Shown: in pieces, positions 21,424-53,761 of the stretch
How positions within the stretch are numbered: position 1 is the first letter of the stretch
How the letters are laid out: each line of letters opens with the position of its first letter
DNA from: Gammaproteobacteria bacterium
Lineage (GTDB): Bacteria > Pseudomonadota > Gammaproteobacteria > GCA-001735895
Assembly: GCA_050298595.1 (NCBI GenBank)
Contig: JBNKUM010000067.1
Location: 2,976-66,975, forward strand
Length of the DNA: 64,000 nucleotides
Direction: 5' to 3'
Position numbers and translations under genes: made by a program
The notes under the pieces: model-generated
The model's input: only the letters and a program-made list of their open reading frames with translations
What the model was told of the DNA's origin: nothing
Databases searched by the model: none

Positions 21424-21765
21424 TTAATTCATATAGGCTCTGGCTTCTTCGCCGGGATTGGGTAATCCAGCCATTTTCCACAGATTCAGACAGCTACCAA
21501 ACTGCTGCTTAAGCTCACGTTTATCGAGACCAGCCGACTTACATACGCTACGCATGGGCGGTAATGCACCTAGTCTCATGTATTTATCTCGAATAATGTC
21601 GATCAAATGCCAGTGCTGTTGAACCAGTTCGATGCCAGCTTCTTCCGCTCTACGTACAGTAAAGGATTCGGTCCAGTCGACTGGATTAATCAGATAACCG
21701 TCTTCGTCCAGTATTTGCTTATTCTGCAAATTTTCTATGTTGTTTTCAGTTTGTATATGAAGCAT
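21424..21765 (-). CDS. TusE/DsrC/DsvC family protein lacking the C-terminal catalytic cysteine
   Basis: A 113-aa protein with the DsrC-like core (DEDGYLINPVDWTE...ELVQQHWHLIDIIRDKY). The C-terminus is AGLPNPGEEARAYMN rather than AGLPKPxxC. Confidence 0.65.
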   Translation of the reverse strand: MLHIQTENNIENLQNKQILDEDGYLINPVDWTESFTVRRAEEAGIELVQQHWHLIDIIRDKYMRLGALPPMRSVCKSAGLDKRELKQQFGSCLNLWKMAGLPNPGEEARAYMN

Positions 21766-23271: not shown

Positions 23272-24741
23272 TCATTCTCCACGCTGTTGATCAATACGTC
23301 GTCTGAACGAAGCCATAATGCTTTTATATAACTGATGCCCCAACACCTTGTCTTCTACTTCGGAATCTATACTGGGGTTATCATTCACTTCGATCACAAA
23401 TACACCCGCATCGGTTTCTTTTAGATCTACTCCATATAGACCATCACCAATCAGGTTAGCTGCTTTGACTGCGGTCTTAACTACCTTTTTGGGTGCAGCT
23501 TCTATGGTCATAGTTTCAAAGTCACCGCTATAGTTTTCACCTGCCGCATGATCGTAGATTTGCCAATGTCCGGAAGACATCATGTATTTACACACAAACA
23601 GAGGTTTACGATCGAGTACTCCTACGCGCCAGTCATAATCTGTGTACATGTATTCCTGCGCGAGGATAAGGTCAGAATCGCGAAACAGCTTTTGACAGGT
23701 AGATTTCAGCTCTTTTAAGTTTTCAGCCTTGTAAACACCACGAGAAAAGGAGCCGTCGGGTATCTTTAGAATAATAGGGAAACTAATATCCTTACTGAGT
23801 TGCTTTTCCTGACCCTTGCTCAGGATTAATGTCTTTGGTGTCGGCACCTTATTGGCACGTAATAATTCTTCCAGAAACACCTTGTTAGTACAGCGCAATA
23901 TCGAATCAGGATCATCCATCACCACCAGTCCTTCATTCTGCGCCCGGCGCGCAAAACGAAAGGTATGGTGATCTATGGAAGTCGTTTCACGAATAAACAG
24001 GGCATCATATTCAGCAATGCGACCGTAATCTTTTTTAGTGATCAATTCTGCGGACATGCCTGACTCGTTTGCCGCCTTAATAAAGCACCCGAGTGCCTCT
24101 GCATCTGATGGCGGTAATTTCTCCGCTGGATTGTGCAAGATTGCCAGTTCATATTTATATTGGCGCTGAGCTTTTGGTTTACGCCAGGGTTTACTCAGAT
24201 AAGCCTGTAACGCTGAGACAAAAGTAATCTTTTCCTGATCATCAAGAGACTTGAGTGAAACTGGCCGAACATCTTCTATCCTCCAACCTTTTTTATACCT
24301 GAAATCTACTCGCAGTAAAGGCGTACTAAAGATCTCAAAAATCTGTTGCCCCAGTTCCTGTAACTCAGGAATAGAGGAACGACCAAACATCACTTTGATT
24401 TTCAGGCGTGTTATTTCCGAAGATAGTCCTTTTTTACTGATGGCTTTTTCCACCTGGTTTTCAAGATTTCGTGTCATCAGGCTATAGATAGAGCGTCGAC
24501 TCAAATCCTGAATAGTGCGCACCGACGGTATTACCTTATGGTTCCTGGCTTCGGCTAGCAGTGAACAGTAATAGCCCAGACTGGCATAGCGATGACTGCG
24601 ACACAGATTGACGATGCGCAAGCGCTGCTCGGGGGGATAGCTTTTGCCTGTCAGGTATTCATTTACGGTAATCACTTTCAGATCCGGAAATTGCTTAGGC
24701 CAGTGTGACAGCTTTTCGACGATGACTATGTGCTCTGACAT
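23272..24741 (-). CDS. RimK-family ATP-grasp ligase with an N-terminal roughly 200-aa (RLAN-like) extension
   Basis: The C-terminal half is an ATP-grasp with RimK-like motifs (ILKIPDGSFSRGV, DGLYGVDL...VIEVNDNPSID). The N-terminal half is unassigned. Confidence 0.8.
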   Translation of the reverse strand: MSEHIVIVEKLSHWPKQFPDLKVITVNEYLTGKSYPPEQRLRIVNLCRSHRYASLGYYCSLLAEARNHKVIPSVRTIQDLSRRSIYSLMTRNLENQVEKAISKKGLSSEITRLKIKVMFGRSSIPELQELGQQIFEIFSTPLLRVDFRYKKGWRIEDVRPVSLKSLDDQEKITFVSALQAYLSKPWRKPKAQRQYKYELAILHNPAEKLPPSDAEALGCFIKAANESGMSAELITKKDYGRIAEYDALFIRETTSIDHHTFRFARRAQNEGLVVMDDPDSILRCTNKVFLEELLRANKVPTPKTLILSKGQEKQLSKDISFPIILKIPDGSFSRGVYKAENLKELKSTCQKLFRDSDLILAQEYMYTDYDWRVGVLDRKPLFVCKYMMSSGHWQIYDHAAGENYSGDFETMTIEAAPKKVVKTAVKAANLIGDGLYGVDLKETDAGVFVIEVNDNPSIDSEVEDKVLGHQLYKSIMASFRRRIDQQRGE

Positions 24742-24762
24742 TCTTTTTCTCAGCCCGGGTAA

Positions 24763-25866
24763 TTATTTTTTGTGGTTATTCGAAATCAATACGACAGCCT
24801 GCAGGCCAGAACGACCGAAACGTGCCATGCGTGAGAACTCCCTGCGCGGGATAGCGATATTGATTGAGTCAGTTGGTGTTTCTCCTTCCTCACGATCAAC
24901 AAAAGGGTCATTCACGTATACCAGATGCTGGTCAAATCCACAAACGACTACCCAGTGAGGATTCTTTTCACCATAAATACGGTAAGAACTGATCAGTACA
25001 ATCGGAATCGCACCTGAGTTAAGCCTGGCTTCCATCTCCGGTTGTTCCAGGTTCTGGTAATGCACCGGGATCTGGTAATCTTTGATCTCCCCCAGCATCT
25101 CTTCATGTACCAGACGCATGACTTCTTTCTTTTCTGGGCTACGTACTGTTTCCACAAATGGCACGCCCTGATCATTAACATGAATAACTGCATTGAATCC
25201 ACGCTTATGAGCCGCTAGCGCCAGACCAAAGGGGCCGCAGCCGCCATGGCCGGATGTCATAAATATCGTAGTCGCTTCACGCCATAGACGGATTTCCAGT
25301 GTTCTATCCAGTGTCAATTCAGGTTGCAGACTTTTCATTGCCATCATCAAAGCAGAAGCACCGCAGGTAAATTCCAGTGTCTGCTCGTAAAAAGGCATAT
25401 TGGCTAATTGTGGAGGCTGATCTGGTTGCAGGCTTTTCTCGAAGCGTAGTGCGGGCATATGATCTTCATAATAATCTGCCAGTACGCCAAAGCGATGGTA
25501 GCCCAGTCCTTCAAACAGTCGCAATGACGCAGCATTGTCTTCTCGTATTTCAAGGCGAATATAAAAACGTCCCTGATCACGTGCCGCGGTTTCGGCAGCA
25601 TTGACCAGCCGCCTGCCTATTCCCATGCCACGAGCGCGTTCCTCGATGGCAATAGAATACAGACGTGCAACCGAGGTTGCCCGGTTATATAGCACCATGA
25701 CATATCCAGCCAGCCCTTCATTATCTTCAGATAACAGTATATCCGCATGAGAGCGGGTCAGCAGATAACGCCATTGTCGACGTGAAATCAGGTCTGTCTC
25801 GAAACAACGTTTTTCTATACCCGTGAGCTGGTCAATATCAGAAAGTTTGGCAGGGCGGATCAACAA
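24763..25866 (-). CDS. Bifunctional GNAT N-acetyltransferase / C39-like cysteine peptidase
   Basis: The N-terminal half is GNAT (RARGMGIGRRLV). The C-terminal half has a papain-like Cys motif (FTCGASALMMAM) and a His (HWVVVCGFD). It lies 22 bp upstream of the RimK-family gene. Confidence 0.8.
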   Translation of the reverse strand: MLIRPAKLSDIDQLTGIEKRCFETDLISRRQWRYLLTRSHADILLSEDNEGLAGYVMVLYNRATSVARLYSIAIEERARGMGIGRRLVNAAETAARDQGRFYIRLEIREDNAASLRLFEGLGYHRFGVLADYYEDHMPALRFEKSLQPDQPPQLANMPFYEQTLEFTCGASALMMAMKSLQPELTLDRTLEIRLWREATTIFMTSGHGGCGPFGLALAAHKRGFNAVIHVNDQGVPFVETVRSPEKKEVMRLVHEEMLGEIKDYQIPVHYQNLEQPEMEARLNSGAIPIVLISSYRIYGEKNPHWVVVCGFDQHLVYVNDPFVDREEGETPTDSINIAIPRREFSRMARFGRSGLQAVVLISNNHKK

Positions 25867-27286: not shown

Positions 27287-30100
27287 TTAGTCTTTCAATG
27301 CTTTTAATATGGTCGTGTAGTCAAAGTTCCTGGCGAGCTGAGTCAGTTTGCTCTGTAATTCCTGGTCGTGCATCGAAACCTGCTGGATGACCGCCTCAAT
27401 GCGCTTGGACTCCAGGCTTTCTAGCACTTCAACGAACTCATTGCGCAGTGCTTCAGGCAGGCTATTCAACATCTGCGGCGTTAACGATATATCCGGTTCT
27501 ATTACGTCTGATTCCACAGCGCTCTCATAAAGATATTTCACGCCTAGCTGTCTTGAAAGGCAATCATAAATCTCGCCCGGTCGGTAGGGCTTGCGCACAT
27601 AGTCATCCATGCCACTAGCAAGCATTTCGTCCCGCTCTTCGTCAAACGCCGATGCAGTCACTGCAGCAATCTTAACCTCCTTGCCACCCGCTAATTCACG
27701 GATGCGCCGTGTCGCCTGTATGCCATCCATCACAGGCATGCGTCTATCCATCCAGATGAAATGTGGATGCCAGCTCTCAAACAGTTGTACCCCCTGCTCA
27801 CCGTTCTCGGCTATCCTGACCTTAAAACCAACAGATTCCATAAACCTGCTCAGTAGCAACTGATTATCACGCTGGTCTTCCACGATCAAAATACGATACT
27901 CGCCCTGGTCAGGGGCCAGCGCCATCACTTCGTCCTTGACGATCACCTGCTCTGCCATAGTAATATCTGCCTCCTGTGCTTCAATCAGGGGTAGGTCGAG
28001 CCTGAACAACGAGCCTTTACCTGGAGCACTTTCCAGCCAGATATTCCCGCCCATCATCTTTACAAATTGACGCGTAATCGTTAATCCCAGCCCGGTGCCT
28101 TTATTGGTACCCTGTTCGCCAAGTTGCACAAAAGGCTCGAAAACCTTTTGCTGGTCTTCAACCGCTATGCCAATGCCAGTGTCCTCTACATCGATCAGCA
28201 GATGAGAGATCTTATTATCCTTTGTGTCCAGGCGTAGCGTGACCCCCCCCTGCTCAGTATTTTTGATGGCGTTGCTTACCAGATTGATCAGAATCTGCCG
28301 TAGACGGGCCTGATCACCGACAATGAAACGTGGGAATAGAGAACTCTGGTCGATCCTTAATTGCAGGCCTTTGTTGAAAGCACGTTGCTGCATCATGTCA
28401 ATAATATCGCGCACCAGAGTACCCAGATCGAAGGCTGCATTTTCCAGATTCACCTGTCCCGCTTCGATCTTGGCCATATCTAGCACATCGTTAATCAGCG
28501 CCAGCAGATGTTTACCGCTACGACTAATAATTTCGATGTTCTCACGCAGGGATTCGTGTAGTAATGGATTATTGGTCATGAGTTCGGAGAACCCGAGGAT
28601 GGCGTTCAGAGGTGTGCGAAGTTCATGACTCATATTGGCCAGGAAGGCACTCTTGGCACGGCTGGCTGATTCAGCGTGTTCCTTGGCAGATAGCAACTGC
28701 CGATTTGAATCGGCTAACTCGTGAGTACGTTCATTCACCTTTGCCTCCAGGCCCCCAATTAATGCATGCAATTGACCTGCAATATTATTAAAGACGGATG
28801 TCAGCTCACTGATTTCATCTTCCGATTGGGGTGCTATTGGATGCTGTAGATAACGTCTCAGAGCAATACGCTGGCTATACTCTCTATCTACTTCTTCTTC
28901 CACCATCTCAGGTTTCTCCAGACCCATCGCAGATACTGCCCTGGTAAGCGCCCTGATCGGTGCAACGATTCTACTGATCAAGGAGTATCCGACGGCACCT
29001 CCCAACACAAGAATAAACACAGACGCGGCAATAATGCCCATGACGGTTTGGCGGATGGTGGCAATGGTGTTTTCCCTCGAAAGTGCCTGACTCAGAATAA
29101 GCGAGCTACCATCCTCTGCTATCTGCCAGGGCATAGAAGCCTGGTAGTAGGAATCCCCTCCTATATTTACGGTATGCAACTGGATAAGCGGGTCTCTTTG
29201 CGCAGACAAAACTTCAGTTGGTGTAGCCAGATCTACCAATTGAACACGCTGCTGCCCATCTGCGGAGATAATAGCCGGCAACAAACCCGTCTTCTCAGTA
29301 AGATTTTGCAGAAAGCCTTTGTCAAATACCTGAGTAAAAACAAACATACCGATCCTGACCGGTAAGTCCTCCTGCGTTAGCTGGGCTTGCAAAGCTGTCG
29401 TAGGCGTGGCTATGCTCAGGTTTTCGGCAATGACTTCGTTAAAAGACTGGCGAATCATACCTTGAATCGGCACTATCACGTGCAGCTCGATAACCTCTTG
29501 TGCAGGAAAATCGAAGCTTACCGTCACCCTGTCCACATTGGGAAAGTGGCGATGGATTGATCCTGGCAGTGGGATTTCTGACCAGTTACGCCAGTCATCC
29601 AGCGGTACCTTACCATTTCTGTACTGCTGAATCCCAACCACCCTAGTTTGACTATCGTGTCGCTTTATCATGCCCGCCGCCTGCGGCGTCACAAAATGTG
29701 ACAGGTCATCATCTAGATACACCGCCACACTGGACAGGCGTGCGGAGAGCAGGATTAACTGTAAGCGGTTTAAGGATGTGACCCGGTTAAGACTTACAGC
29801 GCTGTCGAGAGGAGCGCTAGGTTGATTTTTCAGCTTGAGTAGCTGGCTGTATAAAACAGCCATATCGCTAAGATTCTTTTCGTCACGCGCGGCTTGCATA
29901 GACACATTAGACATACGGTTGCGCATTTCCTGTAGATCGTTTTGAAATACGATCAACTCACGTGACAATCGGTTATAGGCTTCTGCCTGACTCTCGCGGT
30001 TAATCAGGTATGAAGCCAGCAGGGCATTAAGCAGCGTAACCGCTAACAGAAATGCCGCAAAGATAGCCAGTAGCTTGTATTTAATACTTACAATTTTCAC
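27287..30100 (-). CDS. Hybrid sensor histidine kinase (periplasmic domain of about 310 aa, HAMP, HisKA, HATPase, REC, C-terminal helical extension), paralog 1
   Basis: A 937-aa protein. Two TM segments flank the large periplasmic domain. It has an H-box ([17 protein letters not shown]) and REC (FIWMDRRMPVMDG). Confidence 0.9.
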   Translation of the reverse strand: MKIVSIKYKLLAIFAAFLLAVTLLNALLASYLINRESQAEAYNRLSRELIVFQNDLQEMRNRMSNVSMQAARDEKNLSDMAVLYSQLLKLKNQPSAPLDSAVSLNRVTSLNRLQLILLSARLSSVAVYLDDDLSHFVTPQAAGMIKRHDSQTRVVGIQQYRNGKVPLDDWRNWSEIPLPGSIHRHFPNVDRVTVSFDFPAQEVIELHVIVPIQGMIRQSFNEVIAENLSIATPTTALQAQLTQEDLPVRIGMFVFTQVFDKGFLQNLTEKTGLLPAIISADGQQRVQLVDLATPTEVLSAQRDPLIQLHTVNIGGDSYYQASMPWQIAEDGSSLILSQALSRENTIATIRQTVMGIIAASVFILVLGGAVGYSLISRIVAPIRALTRAVSAMGLEKPEMVEEEVDREYSQRIALRRYLQHPIAPQSEDEISELTSVFNNIAGQLHALIGGLEAKVNERTHELADSNRQLLSAKEHAESASRAKSAFLANMSHELRTPLNAILGFSELMTNNPLLHESLRENIEIISRSGKHLLALINDVLDMAKIEAGQVNLENAAFDLGTLVRDIIDMMQQRAFNKGLQLRIDQSSLFPRFIVGDQARLRQILINLVSNAIKNTEQGGVTLRLDTKDNKISHLLIDVEDTGIGIAVEDQQKVFEPFVQLGEQGTNKGTGLGLTITRQFVKMMGGNIWLESAPGKGSLFRLDLPLIEAQEADITMAEQVIVKDEVMALAPDQGEYRILIVEDQRDNQLLLSRFMESVGFKVRIAENGEQGVQLFESWHPHFIWMDRRMPVMDGIQATRRIRELAGGKEVKIAAVTASAFDEERDEMLASGMDDYVRKPYRPGEIYDCLSRQLGVKYLYESAVESDVIEPDISLTPQMLNSLPEALRNEFVEVLESLESKRIEAVIQQVSMHDQELQSKLTQLARNFDYTTILKALKD

Positions 30101-30184
30101 TATTAATTAGCATCAGTAATCGATGCACGTCCCTCAATCAATCAGCTGATAAAAAACAGGGGCTCGTTGCACATCCGTTCAACA

Positions 30185-31546
30185 CTACCGATGAGCATAA
30201 CCGTTATGATCTTGAATGTCCTGATCAATCTTTTCGGCTGCTTTACTGAGTTCGGCCTGCACATCAGCCCCTTTAATTATATTATCTACCGCCTCGGCGA
30301 AGACTTTGGTGATAGTTGCATAGGCTGGCGTGAGGGGACGAGGCACAGCCCAACCGGCTTCTATCTGTTGAACATACACGTTTAAAGGGCCACCTGGCTG
30401 GTAAAGCTCTGACCTGGCAAATGCCGATTTACGCGCCGGTACACCAGGGTGAATACCTGTCCAACGCACAATCTTGTCGGGTTGCAGAATATAGTCCAGG
30501 ATCGCCCAGCTCCCTTCAGGATTCTGGCAGGAGCTGGTGATACCAAAATTCCAGGCACCCAAACCAGTTTTGGGTCCATTGCCAAAGTCAGGCATGGGGA
30601 TGACAACCAAATCTTCGCCCAAAGCATCCGCATAGCTGCTATAGGTCCAGTGTCCTACCCAGGAAAGCGCCGCTTTGCCAGAAGCAAAATCCGTATCTCC
30701 CTGTGGGCTGGGGTTAGCCCAGCCCTTCTGGAACCAGCTCTGGAAATGCTGCATAGCTGTGACGGATTGAGGTCCATCCAGTACGCCTTTGGCAGACTGG
30801 TAGTTATTGCGATCAATCAAGTCACCGCCGAAAGACTGCAGGATGGGTGAAAAACCATAGGTAAAGAATTCACCGCGCCCATAGTTGATTTTCATATCCA
30901 GTGGATATTCAACGTCTGGGACGGCGGCCAGTTTTTCTAAAGCCGCTTCAAACTCAGCCAGATCCCATGGCTGCTGGATGGTAGGTATGCGCACGCCAGC
31001 TGCCTTTAGGTACTGGCGATTGCCATACATCGCCAGACCAGAGTCAACTATACCCAGTGTATACAGATTATTATTGTAGGTTCCCTGGGCAATGATAGAG
31101 GGCAGGAAATCGGCCTTCATCTGTGCTGACACAAAGCGGTCTATGGGTTGCAGGTAACCCAGCCAGGCCAGATATGAGACCATAGGTCCGTCAAAGAAAA
31201 GCAGGCAGGGCAGATCACCTGTGCGCCCGGCAGCCAGGATGCGGTCGGTGTAAATGCCTTCTGGCACCAGTGTCATCTCGGCTGAGTAGCGATCCTGCTC
31301 CTTGTTAAAGTCCTTCAGATTGAGTTCCATTGCTTTTAAGGCATTACCGGTACCGGCATTGAACCATACCGTCACGATTTGATTCCTGCTAACTGCGGCT
31401 GATGGAGGCTTAATCTTAGTGGGCGCTGGTTCAGGCGCTATACTGGCTGGTGGGCTTTTAGCAGTGGGTTCACTGGGTGGATCGCAAGCCGTTAGCACGG
31501 ATGCTAGCATGAATAAAATTATTAGATAACTAACCTTCTTGTGCAT
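30185..31546 (-). CDS. Orphan extracellular solute-binding lipoprotein (family-1, sugar-type SBP fold), paralog 1
   Basis: A 453-aa protein with a lipoprotein signal (LTAC). It has a MalE/UgpB-like architecture. There are no adjacent permease or ATPase genes. Confidence 0.85.
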   Translation of the reverse strand: MHKKVSYLIILFMLASVLTACDPPSEPTAKSPPASIAPEPAPTKIKPPSAAVSRNQIVTVWFNAGTGNALKAMELNLKDFNKEQDRYSAEMTLVPEGIYTDRILAAGRTGDLPCLLFFDGPMVSYLAWLGYLQPIDRFVSAQMKADFLPSIIAQGTYNNNLYTLGIVDSGLAMYGNRQYLKAAGVRIPTIQQPWDLAEFEAALEKLAAVPDVEYPLDMKINYGRGEFFTYGFSPILQSFGGDLIDRNNYQSAKGVLDGPQSVTAMQHFQSWFQKGWANPSPQGDTDFASGKAALSWVGHWTYSSYADALGEDLVVIPMPDFGNGPKTGLGAWNFGITSSCQNPEGSWAILDYILQPDKIVRWTGIHPGVPARKSAFARSELYQPGGPLNVYVQQIEAGWAVPRPLTPAYATITKVFAEAVDNIIKGADVQAELSKAAEKIDQDIQDHNGYAHR

Positions 31547-31765
31547 GACTTTTCACCTGTAAATGAATCGAATACCTTTTCAATCGTCGAGCTCTAATGA
31601 TCTGCCTGTCAGCAGCGGGATGCATGCGCTACTGCTTTTACTTTTATCTTCATACCCTTCAGACTCCTGAGTGTGAAAACCTATTTCTTACTTACGCGAT
31701 ATATAGCCCAGTTTGCACAGCGGTGTATGAATAATAAACGCCTCAGCCTTAGATCGACAGGCCAA

Positions 31766-34588
31766 TTATTCAGCCTTATTTAGTGCTCTTAATATAGCAG
31801 GGTAATCAAACTTACTGGCGAGCTGGCTGAGTGCCCTGTGTAACGCCGGGTCAATCGCCTCGGTGCGCTGGATCACTGCCTCAATGCTCTCGGGCTCCAG
31901 ACTTTCCAGTACCTCAATAAGCTCACTACGTAACACTTCTGGTAACTTTTCCAGCATCTGTGGCGTTAATACTACATGCTCATCTTGCGCCTTTGACGCA
32001 GTACTTCCGTACAGATATTTAACGCCCAGGTGTTTTGATATCACATCGTAGATTAGCGTCGCTCTGTATGGTTTGCTCACGTAATCGTCCATACCGATTT
32101 TTAGAATTTCATTGCGCTCCTCTTCAAAGGCCGAGGCGGTCACCGCGACAATCTTTACCTCTTTGCCGTCAGGCAATTCCCGGATACGTCGTGTTGCCTG
32201 CATGCCATCCATCACCGGCATATGTATATCCATCCAGATTAAATGTGGATGCCAGCTCTGAAACAGTTGTACACCCTGCTCACCATTTTCCGCCAGCTTT
32301 ATCTGGAAACCAACACTCTCCATAATTTCAGAAAGAAGGAGTTGATTGTCGCTCTGGTCTTCGACGATCAGGATACGGTATTCGGGTTGTCCCGGCGCAA
32401 GGCTAGTCACAACCCCCCTGCCAATCTGATCCGGTTTGCTGATATCCTGTTCCAGTGCTTCCTGCAAGATCAGTTCTATGCTGAATACCGTGCCTTTATC
32501 AATCTCGCTTTGCAGGCTGATACTGCCACCCATCATTTGCACGAACTGGCGCGTAATAGCCAGCCCGAGTCCCGTGCCCTTACTGCTATCCTTTTCACCC
32601 ACCTGTACGAAGGGGTCGAAGATAAGTTGTTGATCTTCAGGGCTGATACCTATGCCTGTATCCTCAACCTCGATCAGCAGATGAGATATTCTGTTTTGCT
32701 TTGTGGCCAGACGCAGAGTCACGCCCCCCTGCTGGGTAGCTCTGATGGCATTCCCTATCAGATTGATCAGAATCTGGCGCAGGCGCGACTCGTCGCCTAC
32801 GATGTAACGAGGGAACTGCGATGACTGGTCGACATGTAATTGCAGATCCTTATTTTCCGCGCGTATGCGCATCATATCGATAACATCTCGTAGCATACCG
32901 CCCAGATCAAAAGGCTCATTCTCCAGTTGTACCCGCCCGGCTTCTATCTTGGCCATTTCCAACACATCGTTGATCAGCGTTAGCAGGTATTCGCCACTAC
33001 GATTAATAATATTATTATTGTGCTGTAATCTTTCAGGCAGTGATGGATCCTGGTTCATCAGGTTGGAAAACCCGAGGATAGCGTTCAATGGGGTACGCAG
33101 TTCGTGGCTCATGTTGGCAAGGAAAGTACTCTTGGCTCGGTTGGCAACTTCGGCCTTTTCTTTGGCCGCCTGTAACTCCTGAGTGCGTTCGTCAACGCGT
33201 TGCTCCAGTGTTTCAAACGATTGCCGCAGTTGCCTGATCATGGCATTGAAGGCGGCGGCCAGTTGCCCTACTTCATCACTGGCTTTAAGGTCAATCTCGA
33301 TCAGCTTATCCGAGACTACAGGCGTATCTTTCGCTGTGGAACTATTAATCTGGGTGTTCAGACCGATGCGTGAAACGCTTTCCGTTAAGGCCACAATCGG
33401 TTTGACCAGACGATCTAACAGTATATAGCCCAATATCCAGACCACGATCAAAACCAGAGTAGCCAGGCCAATGAGTGCAGTAACGGTTTCTCGTATCTTC
33501 TGGGAGGCGCTCGCCCCTGATTGCGTAAACCCGATAATCAGCCGGGCTTTATCGCCATAGTGCAACAGGGTCAGGGCCTGGTAATAGGTTTCATCATCCA
33601 CGCTCAGAATCCTTTGTTGCATCGGTTGTTCAGGTGTCGCCTGACTCTGTTGCACCCATTGCACCAGATCTTCCGGCTTCATCTTCATTTTGACGATTTC
33701 GATTTGATGCATCCCATCTAACGAATACAGTGCTGGTAATAAACCACTTTTCTGCGCAATGCCTTGCAAAAATGCCTGGTCAAAGACCTTCTTGAATACA
33801 AAGGCACCAATGAGAACTGGTTTGATTTGGTCGGGATTTTTCTGGTTAAGCGCTTCCTGAGAAGCGATGACTGGATTGTTGACCACAAATCCTTCGGAGG
33901 AACCCAGGGTAATATTGTTTCGCATTACCGTTCGAGTAATTGCCTGTACCGGGACAACGATTTGCAATACCAACGCCTGCTGTTCAGAAAAATAAAAGGA
34001 AATCATGGGTTGCCTGGGTAATGTAATTTGAGATGAGATTAATGGAGGAGGGGTACCCAGCGGCCATATTGGCCAGTTATTGAACTTCATCTCTCCGCTC
34101 TGATCTGGATCAGTTTTAATCAGCCTCTGCTGCCCCTCCCGAAACACACTGATGCCAGCCTCAGTAGTAGTCACGAAATGACTTAACTCATTGCCCGTGT
34201 AAACGGCGGCGCTGGAAAATCCGGCCGTACGCAGAATAATCTGAAACCGATTCAGTGAAATGGTTTTATCGAACAGGAATCCGCGTTCATTCTTTGATGC
34301 TAGCTCAGGATAGTTCTTAAATTGCTGTGTTTTTGCATACAGCGTAGCCAGATCACTCAAGTTATCGATTCCGGTAACATTTTTTTCGGCAACCCTGCGC
34401 AGATCAGTTATCGTTTCCTGCAACTCGTACTGTAACAGGTCGGTCTGTTTGGTCAGGCTGCTAAACGCCTCTCGCTCGCTTTGTTGCGTGGTCAGGTAGA
34501 TGGCGAGTGCTACATTAAGCCCAGCGATAATGATCAGGGCCGTGCTAAACGCCAGCAGCAATTTCGTCTTGATACCCGATATGTTCAC
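31766..34588 (-). CDS. Hybrid sensor histidine kinase, paralog 2
   Basis: A 940-aa protein with the same architecture as 27287-30100 and clear similarity along its full length. Confidence 0.9.
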
Positions 34589-34614
34589 TGTAACTTGTCA
34601 GCTTTTTCTGTGCA

Positions 34615-35982
34615 CTATTTGATCGGATAGCCGCCGTGATCTTTTATATCCTGGTCAATTTCCTGCGCCGCCCGGTGAAGTTCCGTTTTGACGTCTGCGC
34701 CATTAATAATATTCTCCATCGCTTCGGCAAAGACCTTTGAGATCACGGCATACGCTGGAGTGATCGGACGAGGAATGGCGCGCTCGCTTTCCAGTTGTTG
34801 TGCAATCAAATGTAAGGGGCCTGATTCACCATACAATTTTGACTGTGCCAGCACTGACTTCCGGGCCGGTGGGCCTCCGTTTTCGTTCGTCATACGTAAC
34901 ATTTCCTGCGGGGATAGCAGGAACTCGATGAATGTCCAGGCGCCAGTGGGATCCGGGCAATTGCTGGATATCCCCCAGCTCCAGCTACCCATCGCGGTTT
35001 TTGACCCATACCCAAAATCAGGCTGCGGTAACAACACCAGATCTTCCCCCAGAGCCTCGGCATGCGGTTTGTACATCCAGTGCCCCACCCAGGCGAGGGC
35101 CGCTTTTTTAGATCCGTAAAAATCGTCGTCCGTGGTCCTGGATTTGCCGGCCCAGCCCTTTTCAAACCAGCTCTGAAAGTGTTGCATGGCCTCAATCGAC
35201 TGGGGACTATCCAGCACGCCAGTTGCATGCTGGTAGCTGCTGCGATCAATCAGATCACCACCAAATGACTGGATGATGGGCGTAAAACACCATGAATAAA
35301 ACTCGCCAGGACCATAATTAATTTTCATATCAATTGCATACTCTACGTCAGGCAGGGCGGTCAGTTTTGCCAGCGCCTCTTCAAATTCGACCAGATTCCA
35401 CGGTTTTTCAAAGGTCGGTATGCGGATTCCAGCCGCGTTCAGATAGCGGCGATTGCCGTAGATTACCAGCCCTGAGTCAAACTGTCCGAGGCTATAGAGC
35501 TGTCCGTTGAAGGTTCCCTGGGTGAGAATCGAGGGCAATAAGTCGGCTTTTAGATCTGCTGAAACAAAACGGTCAATCGGCTGCAGATAGCCTGGCCATG
35601 CAAAGTTATAGAGGTATGGACCGTCAAACTCCAGGGCGCAGGCCAAACTACCAGACTGTGCGCTGCCAATGATCCGGTCAGCATAGATTTCCGGTGCAAT
35701 CGGCACATATTCTATGGTGTATTTATTTTGAGCCTGCTCAAAGGCTTCCACCGACTTAGCAAACACATCACCTTCTATGCTGCCAGGTAACATATGCGTC
35801 CAGACGCTGATCACTTTGCGCCTGTCTGTCTGGGGCGAGGGTGTTGAAGGTAGCGCTGTTGGTACTGAAGAGGGAGCGGCTAAAGCAGTGGATGTAGTCA
35901 AGTCCGAAATCCTGCAAAAAGTTAGTATCATGGCCACCAGAATCAGCTTATTTTGATAAAGTATTTTCTTTCTCATTTTCAC
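34615..35982 (-). CDS. Orphan extracellular solute-binding protein, paralog 2
   Basis: A 455-aa protein, roughly 60% identical to SBP paralog 1 (QPIDRFVSA..KAD.LPSI..QGT, YGNR.YL.AAG.RIPT). Confidence 0.85.
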   Translation of the reverse strand: MKMRKKILYQNKLILVAMILTFCRISDLTTSTALAAPSSVPTALPSTPSPQTDRRKVISVWTHMLPGSIEGDVFAKSVEAFEQAQNKYTIEYVPIAPEIYADRIIGSAQSGSLACALEFDGPYLYNFAWPGYLQPIDRFVSADLKADLLPSILTQGTFNGQLYSLGQFDSGLVIYGNRRYLNAAGIRIPTFEKPWNLVEFEEALAKLTALPDVEYAIDMKINYGPGEFYSWCFTPIIQSFGGDLIDRSSYQHATGVLDSPQSIEAMQHFQSWFEKGWAGKSRTTDDDFYGSKKAALAWVGHWMYKPHAEALGEDLVLLPQPDFGYGSKTAMGSWSWGISSNCPDPTGAWTFIEFLLSPQEMLRMTNENGGPPARKSVLAQSKLYGESGPLHLIAQQLESERAIPRPITPAYAVISKVFAEAMENIINGADVKTELHRAAQEIDQDIKDHGGYPIK

Positions 35983-36121
35983 TCCCCTCTAATGTACTTC
36001 AATACCAATGAGTAATTTCGGGCTCCTGACAAGCCGGCTCTGCTTATAATTAGGGCACCTCCGATGTAAATATTATGCCTTTCATATGTATCCAAATTAT
36101 GATTTGCCTGCTACATCATTA

Positions 36122-37927
36122 TTATTTCTGGAAATTTTCGGGTGAAATCCCCTTGCTGCACATCTCCAGAATTTTGTCTCCTGATACGGACTTGCTGTAA
36201 TAAAACCCTTGCGCAACATCACAATCCACGGATTTCAGAAATTCCTGCTGAGTACCCATCTCAACGCCTTCAGCAACCACTTTCAGATTCAGGCTATGGG
36301 CCATGGCAATAATGGCCAACGGAATCGCATTGCCATGCTCAGTACCAATGTTTTTTATAAAGGACTTATCGATCTTCAGTTCGTTGACGGGGAAATCCTG
36401 CAAATAGGCTAGACTTGAATATCCTGTTCCGAAATCATCAACTGAAAGCCCAACACCTAAATCATGCAGCTTGTTTAGAATATCCAGATTAGTTTTACTG
36501 TACTGCATCAGCAGACTTTCGGTTATCTCCAGTCCAAGCCTGGAGGGCGGTATCTGAAACTCTTCAATAGTACGATGCACGGTATCTTCAAAGCCATCTG
36601 AGTGTAATTGCGGCACTGAGATATTTACCGAGATAGATAAATCATCATAACCAGCATCATGCCATCGTCTTAATTCTGCACAACTCTCACGTAAGCCAAA
36701 CGCTCCAAGTTCCTTGATCAGTCCATTCGCTTCTGCTACCGGGATAAATTCTGCCGGGGATATCAACGTTCCATTGGCGAGACGCCATCGCATTAGCGCT
36801 TCAGCACCTATGATTTTATTTGTAGTTAAATCAATCTGTGGTTGATACTCCATAAACAGTTCCTGATTATGAATCGCATCTATGAGCAAATTGGAAAGGT
36901 TAAGATGATCCTGCACAGTCCTGTTTAATTCGCTGGTATACAGTTTGATTTCGGCTCGACCAGATTGCTTGGCGTGATACATGGCGGTATCGGCATTGCT
37001 CAACAGGGTATCCACATCCGTGCCGTCCTCCGGGTAAACAGCTATACCAATGCTAGCACCTATATGAAAATTCAAATCATTCATTTGAAATGGTATTCGA
37101 AGAGAATCAAATATTTTTCTGGCCATAGCCATGATATCTTGATTTTTCTGATGCAATGGTAGACAAATTACAAACTCATCTCCACCCAGCCTGGCAACAA
37201 TATCTTCATCACGTATGGCACTTTTAAGTCTATCGGCAACTTTACTTAGCAGCTTGTCGCCAGCATGATGTCCTAACGAATCGTTAATAATTTTAAATTG
37301 ATCCAGATCGAGAAACATCAATGCAATATTCTCATCACATCGTTTCGCTCGAGTGATTAGCTGGTTAAGTCGCTCCACCAACAATATACGATTGGGCATG
37401 TCGGTTAACGAATCATGAGTAGCGATATACCTGACCTGTTCTTCAACTCGCTTTCGCTCCTCAATTTCATGGCGTAATAAAACGTTAGCATCAACTAGCT
37501 CCTGAGTGCGCTCGCTAATACGTATATCAAGCTCTTTGCGTAAACCCGAAAGCTCGAGATGAGTATTGATTCGAGCCATTACTTCCGCAAAATTGATCGG
37601 TTTGGTAATGTAATCGACAGCACCCACGGCAAAACCATGCACCATATCGGATGTTTCTGTAGCAGCGCTTAAGAATATGATAGGGATATCTATCAGATCC
37701 TGTTCTAATCTGATGCGACGACAGGTCTCATAGCCATCAATACCCGGCATCATAATATCAAGCAGAATAAGGTCTGGCTTAGGGAGATTGGCCAGTTTTA
37801 GGCGTCGAAGTGCCTGTTCTCCACTTTGCGCGACTGCTATCTTGAGATTCTGCCCCTCAAGACCGTCAACTAGCAACTTCAGATTGGCAGGATTATCGTC
37901 AACTAGCAGGATAATTTTACTTACCAT
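36122..37927 (-). CDS. Response regulator with REC, GGDEF and EAL domains
   Basis: A CheY-like REC (LILLDIMMPG) and intact GGDEF (RLGGDEFVI) and EAL (GAEALMRW) motifs. Confidence 0.9.
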   Translation of the reverse strand: MVSKIILLVDDNPANLKLLVDGLEGQNLKIAVAQSGEQALRRLKLANLPKPDLILLDIMMPGIDGYETCRRIRLEQDLIDIPIIFLSAATETSDMVHGFAVGAVDYITKPINFAEVMARINTHLELSGLRKELDIRISERTQELVDANVLLRHEIEERKRVEEQVRYIATHDSLTDMPNRILLVERLNQLITRAKRCDENIALMFLDLDQFKIINDSLGHHAGDKLLSKVADRLKSAIRDEDIVARLGGDEFVICLPLHQKNQDIMAMARKIFDSLRIPFQMNDLNFHIGASIGIAVYPEDGTDVDTLLSNADTAMYHAKQSGRAEIKLYTSELNRTVQDHLNLSNLLIDAIHNQELFMEYQPQIDLTTNKIIGAEALMRWRLANGTLISPAEFIPVAEANGLIKELGAFGLRESCAELRRWHDAGYDDLSISVNISVPQLHSDGFEDTVHRTIEEFQIPPSRLGLEITESLLMQYSKTNLDILNKLHDLGVGLSVDDFGTGYSSLAYLQDFPVNELKIDKSFIKNIGTEHGNAIPLAIIAMAHSLNLKVVAEGVEMGTQQEFLKSVDCDVAQGFYYSKSVSGDKILEMCSKGISPENFQK

Positions 37928-38508
37928 ACTGAGTTAATCCCGACAGCACAAAACAGATAATTTGAGAGACAATATAGTTTTATTTTTTTCACAAAACTGC
38001 CTGCATAATTGATGAGTTCCTTATTTATTAAGCTGACGCTGTAAAACCCCGGATATCTATGCGCTCTGGAAGCGCCACCTTTTTGAGGACTTATCTATCA
38101 TTAAAAAAAGGTGAGAAAAACAACATCCTGCTATATTGTTTTCCTGTTAACCCTGAGATTCTTATACTGCAATATACTTTATAGCAAAATTTCAGGGAAT
38201 TCGCCTAAAAGGATTTTAAAGATTATTCAGGTAGTCTAAATCAAGTACATAGATTGAAATATGAGCCTGTTTATATTTTTATATTCAATAACTTATAGGA
38301 AATAGTTAGCTTTCTGATCAGTATTTTCAGGTTTATACAGGCATCCCAAAAAATTCAACTATGCGTGAGTCTGTCGGTACTTTTTCAGAGCTTCCTTAAA
38401 TGATGTTGTTCAAACCCACCACTGGAAAGCCAAATGTACTTGAAAAGTAAAAGCCAGGGATAGATCATCAGGGTTTAATTTTCATCCATTCCCAGAGAGC
38501 GGAAACCC

Positions 38509-41325: not shown

Positions 41326-43018
41326 GCTCCTGGCACAGCCTGTGTGAAAACCCTACTTAGGAGTATAATAAGTCATTCAAATAGACAGGTGAAACAATGA
41401 CTGGATTCATTGAAGGCGTAGCCAGAATACAAGCCACCTTATTTCCTGAATTACTTGACGATTACATCAGCGAAGAAAATCCCGTTCGCGTTATTGATGC
41501 CTTTGTCGATAATCTTGACCTCGATAAATTGGGTTTCAAAACCTACCCAGCAATAACCGGTCGTCCTGGTTACCACCCATCCAGCATGCTCAAGCTGTTT
41601 ATCTACGGTTACCTCAATCGTATCCAGTCTTCTCGTCGTTTAGAAAGGGAGTCGGGGCGTAATGTCGAGTTAATGTGGTTACTCGGTCGTCTATCTCCCG
41701 ACTTTAAAACCATAGCTGACTTTAGAAAAGATAATGGTAAAGGCATTAAAAATACCTGTCGAACCTTTATCGATTTGTGCAGACAATTAAATATGTTCAC
41801 CGATGCTATTGTCGCCATTGATGGCAGTAAATTTAAAGCAGTCAATAGTAAAGAAAATAATTACACACCCAAGAAACTACAATTTCATATAGACCGGGTT
41901 GAGAAGCATATCGAAGACTATTTACAACAACTCGATACCGCTGACAGGGCAGAAAAACCAGAGACTGATGGCAGGTCTATCGAAGATAAAATCACCTGGC
42001 TTAAGAAAAGACTCGCTGAGTTAAAGGCACTGGAAGGTGAGGTGGACAATCATCCTGACAAACAACTATCAACAACGGATCCGGACTCTCGATTAATGAA
42101 AACACAAGGGATGACCAGAGTGGTTTGTTACAATGTACAAACGGCCGTTGACCCCAAAAACCACCTGATTGTAGCCCATAAGGTAACGAATACACCTGAT
42201 CGTGGACAACTCTGCGGTGTAGGTAAACTGGCTCAAGACGCACTGGATACTAAAGGGATCACTGTTATTGCTGACAAAGGTTATTACAGTGGCCAGGATA
42301 TCAAAGATGCTCAGGATGCGGGTATGACGGTACTTGTACCCAAAGGTGATACTTCTGGCAGCGAGAAAAAAGGCATATTTAACCGATCCCGGTTCGAATA
42401 CGATGCAGAGCAAGATAGATATATTTGCCCCGCCAAACAAGAGTTATCCTATCGATTCACTTCGGTTGAGAAAGGACTATCGTTAAAGAAGTATTGGGCC
42501 TATGAACCCACTTGTAGGGCTTGCTCGATGAAACCACAATGCTCTAACAGTAATCAGGCTCGTAGAATCACTCGTTGGGTTCATCAGGATAGATTGGATC
42601 AAATGGACAAGTTACTCTCTTCTCAGCCAGAGTGCATGCTCATCAGAAAGCAAACCGTTGAACACCCTTATGGCACGATTAAATGCTGGATGGGATCAAC
42701 TCATTTTTTAACGAGACAATTCAAAAATGTCAGCACCGAAATGAGTCTGCATGTTTTGGCTTACAATTTAAAACGCATGATGTCGTTATTTGGACAGGCT
42801 GGATTAGTCGCCGCAATGACAAAGGTATAGGGATTAATGGCCCATAGTAATTGCATCTATAAAATACGTCGATATGACGTGTTTATTCTTTTGTGTAAGC
42901 CAGACAATTTTCTTATTCATAAAAAGGACTCTGAAAATAAGGAAGCTCAGGACTTAGCATAAGAAGTCTGAATAATGACTGGAGGACGAAATTATTAAGA
43001 TAATAGTTTTTACACAGC
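41326..43018 (+). mobile_element. IS1182-family (IS5-related) insertion sequence with imperfect terminal inverted repeats
   Basis: A single transposase ORF. The left end is cagcctgtgtgaaaac (about 41332) and the right end is gttttacacagcctg (about 42998), matching at 14 of 16 positions as an inverted repeat. The exact ends are uncertain. Confidence 0.55.
41397..42830 (+). CDS. IS1182-family transposase
   Basis: A 477-aa protein with the family's characteristic N-terminus (RIQATLFPELLDDYISEENPVRVIDAFVDNLDL...LGF) and a DDE region. Confidence 0.85.
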   Translation: MTGFIEGVARIQATLFPELLDDYISEENPVRVIDAFVDNLDLDKLGFKTYPAITGRPGYHPSSMLKLFIYGYLNRIQSSRRLERESGRNVELMWLLGRLSPDFKTIADFRKDNGKGIKNTCRTFIDLCRQLNMFTDAIVAIDGSKFKAVNSKENNYTPKKLQFHIDRVEKHIEDYLQQLDTADRAEKPETDGRSIEDKITWLKKRLAELKALEGEVDNHPDKQLSTTDPDSRLMKTQGMTRVVCYNVQTAVDPKNHLIVAHKVTNTPDRGQLCGVGKLAQDALDTKGITVIADKGYYSGQDIKDAQDAGMTVLVPKGDTSGSEKKGIFNRSRFEYDAEQDRYICPAKQELSYRFTSVEKGLSLKKYWAYEPTCRACSMKPQCSNSNQARRITRWVHQDRLDQMDKLLSSQPECMLIRKQTVEHPYGTIKCWMGSTHFLTRQFKNVSTEMSLHVLAYNLKRMMSLFGQAGLVAAMTKV

Positions 43019-51624: not shown

Positions 51625-53700
51625 ATGAATAGCTGGAAGTTATGCATTTTGCTCTGTGCATCCGCCTTTTCTTTATCGGCTGTGGCAGGTAGTGATGACA
51701 GGCTCGATCACTTTCTTTCCTTAAGTTTTGAAGATCTGGTGAATCTGGAAACCAGTATAGCCACAGCATCTCGTCAAACCATTTCTCGAGCACCAGCAGT
51801 TGTTTCAGTAATAACAGCAGATGATATCAAGGCAACTGGAGCGGTAAATCTGGTTGACGCTTTACGTACAGTGCCGGGTCTTCACATCAGGACAGACCCC
51901 TTTGGCAACCGCCCCCTCATCCACTTCCGTGGTTCAAAAGCGGTAAATACTTTGTTAATGGTCAACGGAAACCCAATGAAAGATCTTATGTGGGTATTTG
52001 GCATATTCTGGAAAGGATTACCCGCCAGTATAATTGATCGCATAGAGATTATCCGAGGACCTGGTTCAGCACTATTTGGTGCCGATGCAGCTGCCGGTGT
52101 TATTAATGTGATCACTAAAACAGCAGGCAAGACCGAAGGTACAGAAGCAGGCTTACGTATCGGCAGCTTTAACAGCAAAACCAGCTGGCTACAGCATGGT
52201 GGTAACCTTAATGGCTTCGATATTGGGCTCACGGCCAATATTCATGATACGGATGGATATAGTCCGTTTATCTCAAGCGACAACCAAACCCTCTATGATC
52301 AGGCGCAGACAAGCAATGTTTCGCTTGCACCATCCAATGTGCATTATGGTTGGCATGGCGAAGATCTTCGGCTCTCTATTGGCAAAGGAAACTGGCGATT
52401 ACTGGCGGATTATATGGGTCATAACGATATTCAAACCGGCATGACTGGAACTGCTGTGATCGATCCGCTTACTGTGGCCAGTGATAGCAGATATAACATT
52501 GATGTACTGTATAGCAATGATAACCTGTATGAAGACTGGTTGATCAATGCTGATTTTGGATATGAGCATTTGCAGTATGATTCCGGTGAAGGGTTTCAGG
52601 AACGGCCACCAGGCTTTGTTGATTCCAGTGGCGTTTACCCGAACGGTCTTATCAACCAGATGGAATCGGCTGAGCGTAGTCTGTCTTTTGAAGCCAGCGG
52701 TTTGTATAGTGGTTTTGAAAACCATGTACTTCGCGTCGGTGCGGGTTATTCGGTAAAAGATTTATACTCAGTCGTGCAACGGGTGAACTTTGGACTGGGA
52801 CCCGATGGCAATCAGTTGCCCGCTGGTGGACCGCTGGTTGATGTATCGGATACGCCGTACGCATTCGCCCCTGAAAAAAAACGTGAAATTGCTCATCTGT
52901 TTATTCAGGATATCTGGACTATTACTGACGACTGGGAGCTGACTGCTGGTGCGCGCTACGACGACTATTCTGATTTTGGCGATACGCTGAATCCACGTCT
53001 GGCTCTGGTATGGCAAACTACCGATAAACTAACTAGTAAGTTCATGTATGGAAAAGCATTCCGGGCGCCTTCTTTCCAGCAGCTTTTTTCTGAAACCTCT
53101 CGCGCCCTGCCTAACGACCAGCTTGATGCAGAAGAGTTTGATACGACTGAACTATCACTTTCATATGCCGCAACACAAAAACTTCAACTATCGATGAATA
53201 TGTTCCACCTTAATCAGGAAAATATTATTCAGCGTGTGGCAGTCAGCGGTCTAACCAAGAATCAATATAATAACATTGGAGATCACTGGACCAGGGGCTT
53301 CGAACTCGAAATGAAGTGGCAGACACTGCCGGATCTTAGAATGTCGGCAAACTATGCAGTTCAGCAGCAGAAAGATGATGAGTTTCGATATTTTCTGGTT
53401 CCAGAACAGTCTGCCTACCTGCGTGCTGACTGGTCATTTCACCCCAAATGGAACTGGGATTTTCAGGCAAACTGGATTGGTGAGCGGGTACGCCCATCTA
53501 CTGACACCCGCCCCTCACTTGCCGCTTATACGATTAGCGATACAACGCTTCGTTACACCGATTCAAACTCCTGGTCATTTGCCGCTTCGGTAAGAAATCT
53601 TTTTGACGAGGAGGCAAAAGAATATAGTTCGGGTTCTCTTGAGGATGACCTGCCATTACCAGAACGTAGTTTTTATGTTGAGATGCAATATAAATTTTAA
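51625..53700 (+). CDS. TonB-dependent outer-membrane receptor
   Basis: A signal peptide, a plug domain and a C-terminal beta-barrel ending in a terminal Phe (YVEMQYKF). Confidence 0.9.
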   Translation: MNSWKLCILLCASAFSLSAVAGSDDRLDHFLSLSFEDLVNLETSIATASRQTISRAPAVVSVITADDIKATGAVNLVDALRTVPGLHIRTDPFGNRPLIHFRGSKAVNTLLMVNGNPMKDLMWVFGIFWKGLPASIIDRIEIIRGPGSALFGADAAAGVINVITKTAGKTEGTEAGLRIGSFNSKTSWLQHGGNLNGFDIGLTANIHDTDGYSPFISSDNQTLYDQAQTSNVSLAPSNVHYGWHGEDLRLSIGKGNWRLLADYMGHNDIQTGMTGTAVIDPLTVASDSRYNIDVLYSNDNLYEDWLINADFGYEHLQYDSGEGFQERPPGFVDSSGVYPNGLINQMESAERSLSFEASGLYSGFENHVLRVGAGYSVKDLYSVVQRVNFGLGPDGNQLPAGGPLVDVSDTPYAFAPEKKREIAHLFIQDIWTITDDWELTAGARYDDYSDFGDTLNPRLALVWQTTDKLTSKFMYGKAFRAPSFQQLFSETSRALPNDQLDAEEFDTTELSLSYAATQKLQLSMNMFHLNQENIIQRVAVSGLTKNQYNNIGDHWTRGFELEMKWQTLPDLRMSANYAVQQQKDDEFRYFLVPEQSAYLRADWSFHPKWNWDFQANWIGERVRPSTDTRPSLAAYTISDTTLRYTDSNSWSFAASVRNLFDEEAKEYSSGSLEDDLPLPERSFYVEMQYKF

Positions 53701-53761
53701 GGATTGATATCATCAGGATGAAAAGACAAAAAAGAATGGCAAGGCATCTGGCCAACCGGGA

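Follow-up and report, generated by a model that had tools for sequence, protein, structure and literature searches.

We analysed a 64-kb stretch of gammaproteobacterial DNA (contig JBNKUM010000067.1, positions 2,976 to 66,975; hereafter the window), in which five genes on the minus strand encode a REC-GGDEF-EAL response regulator followed by two pairs, each composed of a solute-binding protein (SBP) and a hybrid histidine kinase (HK). We propose that these pairs are anciently diverged paralogues of a single two-gene cassette for sensing sugar in the periplasm, in which the SBP signals via its kinase, a reading to which we assign a probability of roughly 0.62. It builds on direct observations: the genes present and their domain folds, the strictness of synteny, the structure of the clades, and joint inheritance. 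The features discussed are listed below, with coordinates counted within the window.

HK1, 27287-30100, minus strand: hybrid histidine kinase of 937 aa with the same architecture as HK2; H-box from residue 491
HK1 periplasmic sensor domain, 29066..29998, minus strand: residues ~35-345; homologous to the HK2 sensor
SBP1, 30185-31546, minus strand: 453 aa; predicted lipoprotein with a sugar-type SBP body; "SBP1-type" sub-clade
HK2, 31766-34588, minus strand: 940 aa; first transmembrane helix (TM1), periplasmic double-Cache (dCache)-like domain, TM2, HAMP, HisKA, HATPase_c, REC, and a tail of ~85 aa; H-box SHELRTP starting at residue 494
HK2 periplasmic sensor domain, 33500..34483, minus strand: residues ~36-363; predicted divergent dCache fold
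SBP2, 34615-35982, minus strand: 455 aa counted from GTG; kinase-dedicated sugar-type SBP; "SBP2-type" sub-clade
REC-GGDEF-EAL response regulator, 36122-37927, minus strand: 601 aa (Pfam and motif scan)
Intergenic region, 37928..38508: ~580 bp between the regulator gene and a divergent GFA-family gene (open reading frame map); probable promoter region of the cluster, judged by position alone

The open reading frame (ORF) map confirmed the five co-directional genes of the first-pass annotation at these coordinates. Intergenic gaps, read from the regulator through SBP2, HK2, and SBP1 to HK1, are 139, 26, 219, and 84 bp; given that sites found in a promoter and terminator scan were no more numerous than in shuffled sequence, the operon structure is deduced from spacing only. 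Both SBPs match the Pfam families SBP_bac_8 (82.5 and 84.6 bits, cut-off 27) and SBP_bac_1 (60.9 and 74.1, cut-off 26) above curated cut-offs, and both kinases have the Pfam architecture HAMP-HisKA-HATPase_c-REC. No ATP-binding cassette (ABC) permease or ATPase was detected in the 64-kb window, as covered by Pfam scans of ORFs of at least 150 aa and precomputed Pfam results for two further stretches, nor did tblastn with four cognate permeases from relatives match anywhere in the window. Rfam and tRNA scans of the window also returned no match.

Conserved pairs of binding protein and kinase

A scan of one genome per species with the SBP alignment recovered 79 loci from reference genomes, to which two loci fetched earlier were added, and loci were typed by tblastn with the domains encoded in the window and permeases taken from relatives. 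Among SBP homologues with readable downstream sequence, the SBP gene was directly followed either by a kinase with the same sensor domain (25 pairs, both window pairs counted) or by ABC permeases (55 loci), and no locus among the 79 and the additional two had both. We refer to kinase-linked SBPs and their loci as K-type and to permease-linked ones as T-type (transporter-type). K-type pairs were found in gammaproteobacterial metagenome-assembled genomes (MAGs), Thiodiazotropha, Anaerolineae/Promineifilaceae, Azoarcus, Massilia, Piscinibacter, Pseudoduganella, and Opitutaceae, and the nearest relatives of the window are uncultured gammaproteobacterial MAGs (96% and 93% SBP1 identity). In a reverse look-up, three of three distant kinases (28-35% sensor identity) had an SBP_bac_1/8 gene directly upstream, and in total the sensor domain lay beside this SBP clade in 28 of 28 cases.

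The K-type SBPs form one clade, recovered in 187 of 200 neighbor-joining bootstraps, with T-type SBPs of Chloroflexota, Deinococcota, and Spirochaetes as its sister group. Given that pairwise distances among SBPs co-vary with those among their partner sensors (r = 0.94, with 0 of 2000 Mantel permutations as high), SBP and kinase have been inherited as a unit. The transmitter, on the other hand, varies from a plain HisKA-HATPase kinase in Anaerolineae to a hybrid kinase in Gammaproteobacteria and to a kinase with a second REC and a fused Hpt domain in P0207, a distant member of the family. What is conserved is therefore the combination of SBP and periplasmic domain. Phyletic co-occurrence of the pair takes the form of strict adjacency across phyla, a single SBP clade, and a common phylogeny. 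That the SBPs are kinase partners without a transporter, as the first-pass annotation had it, is supported for the window and the K-locus flanks by this cross-phylum adjacency and the kinase-only clade, and a role of the SBPs as co-sensors for the kinases appears well supported by comparative genomics.

One rival explanation grants the signalling role and adds a second one, namely that the SBPs also supply sugar to an ABC transporter whose genes lie elsewhere in the genome, as GltB, CBP, ChvE, and BctC do. Several characterised kinase-stimulating SBPs indeed serve transporters (review PMC8050422), K-type and T-type SBPs are still 50-60% identical with many conserved residues in common, and our permease search of this genome covers 64 kb. 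However, permeases were absent beside the SBP and within the fetched flanks in all 25 K pairs and the three reverse-test loci, and the K-type SBPs constitute a separate clade in which 13 transporter-conserved positions are relaxed, ten of them at residues 62-126. The predicted lipid tethering of SBP1 on a long linker would also be unusual for a gammaproteobacterial transport SBP, and we regard a dual role as unlikely. Homologues of these SBPs, of which 2120 proteins had E <= 1e-10 among the candidates scored, are currently annotated as "multiple sugar transport system substrate-binding protein", a label that is probably wrong for the kinase-linked clade.

Two other loci differ from the window in composition. 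L003 (4990-15799), from a Thiodiazotropha MAG, encodes two hybrid kinases and, in tandem, three SBP paralogues, one of which seems to be split, along with a LamB-family porin; a REC-PAS-GGDEF-EAL gene lies upstream. It is a more elaborate version of the same SBP-kinase system. L085 (1530-10369) encodes a TonB-dependent receptor, a tannase-family protein, and an SBP, followed by P0207, and the ligand of this branch may be no simple sugar.

Binding proteins and sensor domain

The two SBPs are 53% identical, less than the ~60% initially estimated. The sugar-type fold proposed for them is supported by sequence and structure comparison: the SBP1 structure model (predicted local distance difference test, pLDDT, 85.8) has a two-lobe MalE-like fold, with target-normalised TM-scores against oligosaccharide SBPs of mostly 0.8-0.87. 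Lipidation, initially assigned to both proteins, is likely for SBP1, in which a canonical lipobox (LTAC, Cys21) with Asp at +2 precedes a proline-rich, disordered tether of ~35 residues (aa 22-55), and is improbable for SBP2. The latter has an atypical LTFC motif (Phe at -1) and an Ala-x-Ala site (ALA/AP) ~12 residues further on. Given this degenerate lipobox and the presence of an Ala-x-Ala site, both of which recur in gammaproteobacterial SBP2 orthologues, SBP2 and these orthologues are probably soluble periplasmic proteins, and SBP2 is probably cleaved by signal peptidase I. Judging by Shine-Dalgarno spacing, the true start of SBP2 is probably the ATG at 35976, two codons inside the listed GTG. 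In Escherichia coli, Asp at +2 holds a lipoprotein on the inner membrane, and by this rule SBP1 would sit on the inner membrane beside the kinase.

In each kinase, two hydrophobic segments flank ~310-330 residues. The kinases are 49% identical overall and their periplasmic domains 31% identical over 304 aa (E = 1e-47), so that the paralogy of these domains seen at first pass is clear as homology but old. No Cache-family or LuxQ (PF09308) profile, and no Pfam model at all, matched either periplasmic stretch even at E <= 10, and a PDB sequence search with the sensor domain gave no match. Residues 1-370 of HK2 were modelled with AlphaFold from 44 sequences, and the resulting confident model (pLDDT 87.6, predicted TM-score 0.83) has a long helix at the N-terminus, further helices at ~74-122, and two modules rich in beta structure. 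It indicates a divergent dCache fold, with the long N-terminal helix and two stacked PAS-like alpha/beta modules placed between two transmembrane helices and elaborated by the helical insert at aa ~74-122 and by a conserved loop in which two tryptophans (W172 and W175) are invariant. Structures show the dCache fold also in the SBP-dependent receptors LuxQ and HptS, and the sensors of ChiS, VirA, and MbaA have been assigned as "dCache-like" (review PMC8050422). The domain is rare and has no Pfam entry. Among 1.84 billion cluster representatives, phmmer matched 47 proteins with E <= 1e-3, and apart from one weak match (E 4.8e-4) all of them carry the domain close to or at the N-terminus. Given that a homologue search with the sensor domain alone yielded only four fragments, the full-length kinase was used as query.

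Candidate ligand

Sugars, glycerophosphodiesters, and polyamine-like solutes had been named as ligand classes in the first-pass annotation. Sugars are favoured, the other two classes gained no support, and the sister transporter clade is embedded in sucrose/fructoside genes. Profile and structure comparison grouped the SBPs with di-/oligosaccharide binders and did not extend to finer ligand identity; a structure search with the SBP1 model, tried as a means of choosing a ligand, gave no discrimination.

A Pfam census of 110 neighbours of 22 near T-type loci revealed 14-16 LacI-type regulators and nine glycoside hydrolase family 32 (GH32) genes (11 loci by tblastn), together with PfkB, ROK, GH13, GT4, and GH100 proteins. 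In several of these loci GH32 directly follows the permeases, one locus encodes a sucrose-phosphate synthase/phosphatase fusion above NCBIfam cut-offs, and another encodes a GH100 invertase; GH32 also adjoins more distant actinobacterial T-type SBPs. By neighbour Pfam, no GH32, LacI, or ABC parts occurred in the flanks of K loci, and no permeases or GH32 lie beside the window SBPs; only the sister clade has them. In place of catabolic genes, K loci feature outer-membrane channels, with LamB-family porins present in four and TonB-dependent receptors in four.

Residue conservation was compared between K-type and near T-type SBPs. Given that 29 of the 74 columns conserved at >=90% in both groups are aromatic or polar, the comparison argues that K-type SBPs would have retained sugar binding. 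Only four K-specific switches were detected (W227F, N257D, Y276W, and N447H), and SBP1-type proteins differ at 12 more positions that are conserved in the rest, H63N, Y124S, F167V, and W334F among them, which would fit two related but different specificities. Taken together, sucrose or a related fructoside or disaccharide has roughly even odds of being the ligand, and "neutral di/oligosaccharide" is a much safer designation. Maltodextrin, our first idea based on a Herpetosiphon locus and the LamB porin, was downgraded after the census of GH32, LacI, and sucrose-phosphate synthase. A literature search for a characterised sucrose-sensing SBP-kinase pair, or for Thiodiazotropha in connection with sucrose, returned nothing relevant.

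Possible output to c-di-GMP

The catalytic and phospho-acceptor motifs of the regulator are intact, with the acceptor Asp in LLDIMMPG, GGDEF at 248, an RxxD I-site (RDED) five residues upstream of it, EAL at 376, DDFGTG at 497, and EGVE at 553. Its Pfam REC, GGDEF, and EAL matches score 99.8, 179.2, and 241.9 bits, and its closest NCBIfam model is DibA, below cut-off. All receivers in the cluster retain the acceptor Asp, and the kinases carry HisKA, HATPase_c, and REC with their motifs. A GGDEF-EAL regulator is encoded upstream of the cassette in the window and in L004, L005, L003, and L028, and a kinase output to cyclic di-GMP (c-di-GMP) is plausible, although only partly conserved.

After the receiver, both kinases have a helical tail of ~85 residues (27290-27544 and 31769-32026, minus strand) that is 45-54% identical to the tails of Thiodiazotropha orthologues and has no Pfam match. 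A degenerate Hpt domain was considered for this tail and rejected, given the absence of a Pfam hit, an hhalign probability of 0.6%, and no conserved histidine in the helices.

Proposed mechanism and alternatives

In the mechanism that we propose, each SBP would derive from a clade that split off from the SBPs of disaccharide ABC importers (most likely for sucrose or a beta-fructoside) and lost the permease genes beside it, and would be encoded together with a membrane kinase bearing the divergent dCache periplasmic domain. Sugar entering the periplasm would close the SBP, with SBP1 tethered by its lipid and proline-rich linker and SBP2 probably soluble, and the closed SBP could then dock on the dCache domain of the kinase encoded with it, in the manner of LuxP with LuxQ or HptA with HptS. 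Docking would shift the transmembrane helices and HAMP and thereby change the kinase/phosphatase balance. The receiver within the kinase would take the phosphoryl group from the H-box histidine, and the presumably co-transcribed REC-GGDEF-EAL regulator would probably receive it next, via an Hpt encoded elsewhere or directly from the histidine, so that sugar availability would be converted into a change in c-di-GMP, with the two cassettes probably differing in specificity. In this scheme we infer that the SBP docks, what it binds, in which direction the regulation acts, and how the signal reaches the regulator.

Several observations weigh against this proposal. The correlation of SBP and sensor distances reflects co-inheritance and is no proof of contact, and neighbouring sbp and kinase genes are not always functionally linked, as exemplified by AgtS and AruS in Pseudomonas aeruginosa (PMC11113362); in the present case, coupling rests on cross-phylum synteny and not on one genome. 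The ligand is deduced from the sister clade only, and the structural neighbours of the SBP1 model bind many different oligosaccharides. A Herpetosiphon T-type SBP gene lies between genes for an alpha-glucan phosphorylase and a TreS-like GH13, and one K locus contains a trehalase. Regarding the output, an upstream GGDEF-EAL gene is present in only four of the nine distinct K loci that other Gammaproteobacteria contributed, some of which are truncated at contig ends, and the Chloroflexota loci all lack it; within the window, neither an Hpt domain in the kinases nor an Hpt ORF was found, and the route from kinase to regulator is deduced from gene order only.

If SBP and kinase were adjacent without docking, the kinases could sense a small ligand via a dCache pocket while the SBPs, for example, buffered or scavenged sugar. 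Structures indicate that most dCache domains bind small ligands directly, the conserved W172/W175 loop could be a sugar-binding site, and the non-interacting adjacent pairs documented in P. aeruginosa (PMC11113362) provide a precedent. Yet the synteny is strict in both directions, spans Chloroflexota, Verrucomicrobiota, and Beta- and Gammaproteobacteria, and involves intergenic gaps in the tens of bases; the sensor domain was observed only beside this SBP clade, and transmitters swap while the SBP-sensor pair persists, a combination that is hard to explain without joint function. We therefore give adjacency without docking very little weight.

The docking mechanism could also operate with a ligand other than sucrose, such as maltose/maltodextrin, trehalose, or another neutral oligosaccharide. 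Such a ligand would agree with the Herpetosiphon locus, where TreS is the best match of the GH13, with the trehalase, with the LamB-family porins in Thiodiazotropha K loci, and with the maltotriose-, isomalto-, and cello-oligosaccharide binders among the closest solved structures, and the four K-specific switches and 12 SBP1-type substitutions could have altered specificity. Nevertheless, in near as well as distant T-type clades GH32 is the commonest catabolic neighbour, genes for sucrose-phosphate synthase, a GH100 invertase, and kinases of the fructokinase type are also present, and the sucrose porin ScrY itself belongs to the LamB family. A non-sucrose ligand is thus a possibility that we take seriously but consider doubtful.

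History of the two modules

The first-pass annotation described the two modules as tandemly duplicated, which did not hold in the sense of a local, recent event. SBP1 and SBP2 belong to different deep sub-clades, each with 200/200 support, and were sisters in 0/200 bootstraps; a recent local tandem duplication is ruled out by the tree and these bootstraps, and the two modules are ancient paralogues. The orthologues closest to SBP2, from Thiodiazotropha and Anaerolineae, share 76-77% identity with it, as opposed to 53% for SBP1. Together with its sensor, SBP2 shares 77% and 68% identity with the Thiodiazotropha pair L012 and 77% and 63% with the Anaerolineae pair L009.

Two loci bear on the more recent history of the cluster. 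Over 11.96 kb, L004 aligns collinearly with the window at 84% DNA identity. In L005 exactly one module is missing and a frameshifted SBP2 5' remnant (~7830-8000, signal-peptide region) persists, joined at short microhomology to the SBP1 upstream region, and a module-2-like pair is located on another contig (L013) of the same MAG. These arrangements indicate that one whole SBP-kinase module was deleted in the L005 MAG and that the two-module layout is ancestral within the window's lineage. Insertion of module 2 into a one-module ancestor was also considered and is ruled out for this lineage by the decayed remnant in L005. Between the window and L004, module 1 is 96% (SBP) and 95% (sensor) identical and module 2 only 70% and 52%, and this greater divergence may reflect replacement or fast evolution.

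G+C content is ~0.49 in the SBP and kinase genes versus 0.42 in the regulator gene and right flank, and an IS-type transposase gene (DUF772 and DDE_Tnp_1; 41397-42830, plus strand) lies ~3.5 kb from the cluster. The nearby transposase and the G+C contrast could indicate a foreign origin of the cassettes.

Other genes in the window

Two further kinase loci were observed. A 1220-aa hybrid histidine kinase (8890-12552, minus strand) begins with ~370 residues that lack a Pfam match and may be another unannotated sensor domain; three or four PAS domains, HisKA, HATPase_c, and REC come after them. A three-gene cluster at 51625-56232 (plus strand) encodes a TonB-dependent receptor (691 aa), a DUF4154 protein (190 aa), and a CHASE8 hybrid histidine kinase (633 aa). 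A DsrC-family gene is located at 21424-21765 (minus strand), and a PAPS-reductase-domain gene and a sulfate adenylyltransferase/APS kinase fusion at 56746-60104 (plus strand). These three genes, together with Thiodiazotropha-like relatives, point to a sulfur-metabolising gammaproteobacterium. At 23272-25866 (minus strand), a GNAT acetyltransferase-DUF3335 (peptidase C39-like) fusion gene adjoins a gene for a RimK-like ATP-grasp protein with an RLAN domain, a pair that is conserved in L005.

Significance

About a dozen systems are known to sense through a partner SBP, few of them by means of sugar-type family-1 SBPs, and a further SBP-sensing family is defined here by sequence, fold, and synteny. 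In its SBP clade, evolution has switched cleanly from transport to signalling, and the candidate residues for this switch form a short list; the sister transporters allow a guess at the ligand that makes the family directly testable. Its hosts include uncultured sulfur oxidisers and Thiodiazotropha symbionts, whose sensing of organic carbon or of their host is almost unstudied. If true, a link from sucrose to c-di-GMP would offer a concrete handle on how such organisms sense carbon or hosts.

More tentatively, we hypothesize that an importer SBP was captured by a dCache kinase and became a dedicated receptor for sucrose or plant- or host-derived disaccharides, that the cassette moved between phyla onto different transmitters, and that in Thiodiazotropha-related sulfur oxidisers two cassettes of different specificity feed the REC-GGDEF-EAL regulator. 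Exuded sugar might then set c-di-GMP, and with it an attached versus a free-living state near roots or hosts. We consider this scenario speculative and, as a whole, rather unlikely.

Comparison with known systems

The first-pass annotation knew of no characterised system with this architecture, and none of those reviewed matches it (PMC8050422). The degree to which the architecture is unusual was overstated there, although the family is real, occurs across phyla, and is absent from domain databases.

SBP-dependent sensor kinases form a functional class that includes LuxP/LuxQ, HptA/HptS, TorT/TorS, and XylFII-LytS. In working principle, the closest systems are LuxP/LuxQ and HptA/HptS, in both of which a dedicated SBP acts on a dCache kinase. 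In the Vibrio autoinducer-2 receptor, however, LuxP belongs to Peripla_BP_4 (type I) while the window SBPs are of the SBP_bac_1/8 sugar type, and the window sensor is ~100 aa longer than that of LuxQ, with an extra helical insert and no PF09308 match; the LuxQ NCBIfam model scored far below cut-off on the window kinases and covered only their cytoplasmic part. The glucose-6-phosphate sensor of Staphylococcus aureus differs in that HptA is an SBP_bac_11 protein and HptS a non-hybrid, LytS/YesM-type kinase, in a Firmicute host. In terms of SBP family, the closest systems are GltB/GtrS and NspS/MbaA. In glucose sensing by P. aeruginosa, a sugar SBP of the SBP_bac_1 family stimulates a sensor kinase (PMC8050422), but GltB is encoded in and serves the gltBFGK ABC transporter, in contrast to the permease-free, kinase-only clade of the window SBPs. 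In polyamine sensing by Vibrio cholerae, a transporter-less SBP_bac_8 protein controls c-di-GMP via a dCache-like domain (PMC8050422); MbaA is itself a GGDEF-EAL enzyme, whereas the window has a hybrid kinase and a separate REC-GGDEF-EAL protein, and the ligand is a polyamine as opposed to the sugars expected for the window SBPs.

Two further systems resemble the cassette in part. The Vibrio chitin sensor also has an oligosaccharide SBP that controls a hybrid kinase with a dCache-like domain (PMC8050422), but CBP is an SBP_bac_5 protein that serves an ABC transporter as well, and ChiS binds DNA directly. TorT/TorS combines a dedicated SBP with a hybrid kinase, and TorS (TIGR02956 / PRK11466) is the best NCBIfam match of the cytoplasmic half of both window kinases. 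Nonetheless, these matches reach 375 and 380 bits versus a cut-off of 676.5 and start after the periplasmic domain, and TorS has a helical-bundle sensor and an Hpt domain, whereas the window kinases have a predicted dCache sensor and no Hpt. By their own models, the window kinases are not members of the TorS, LuxQ, or Pfam dCache families. Together with their SBPs, they represent an uncharacterised, cross-phylum family within the known class of SBP-dependent sensor kinases.

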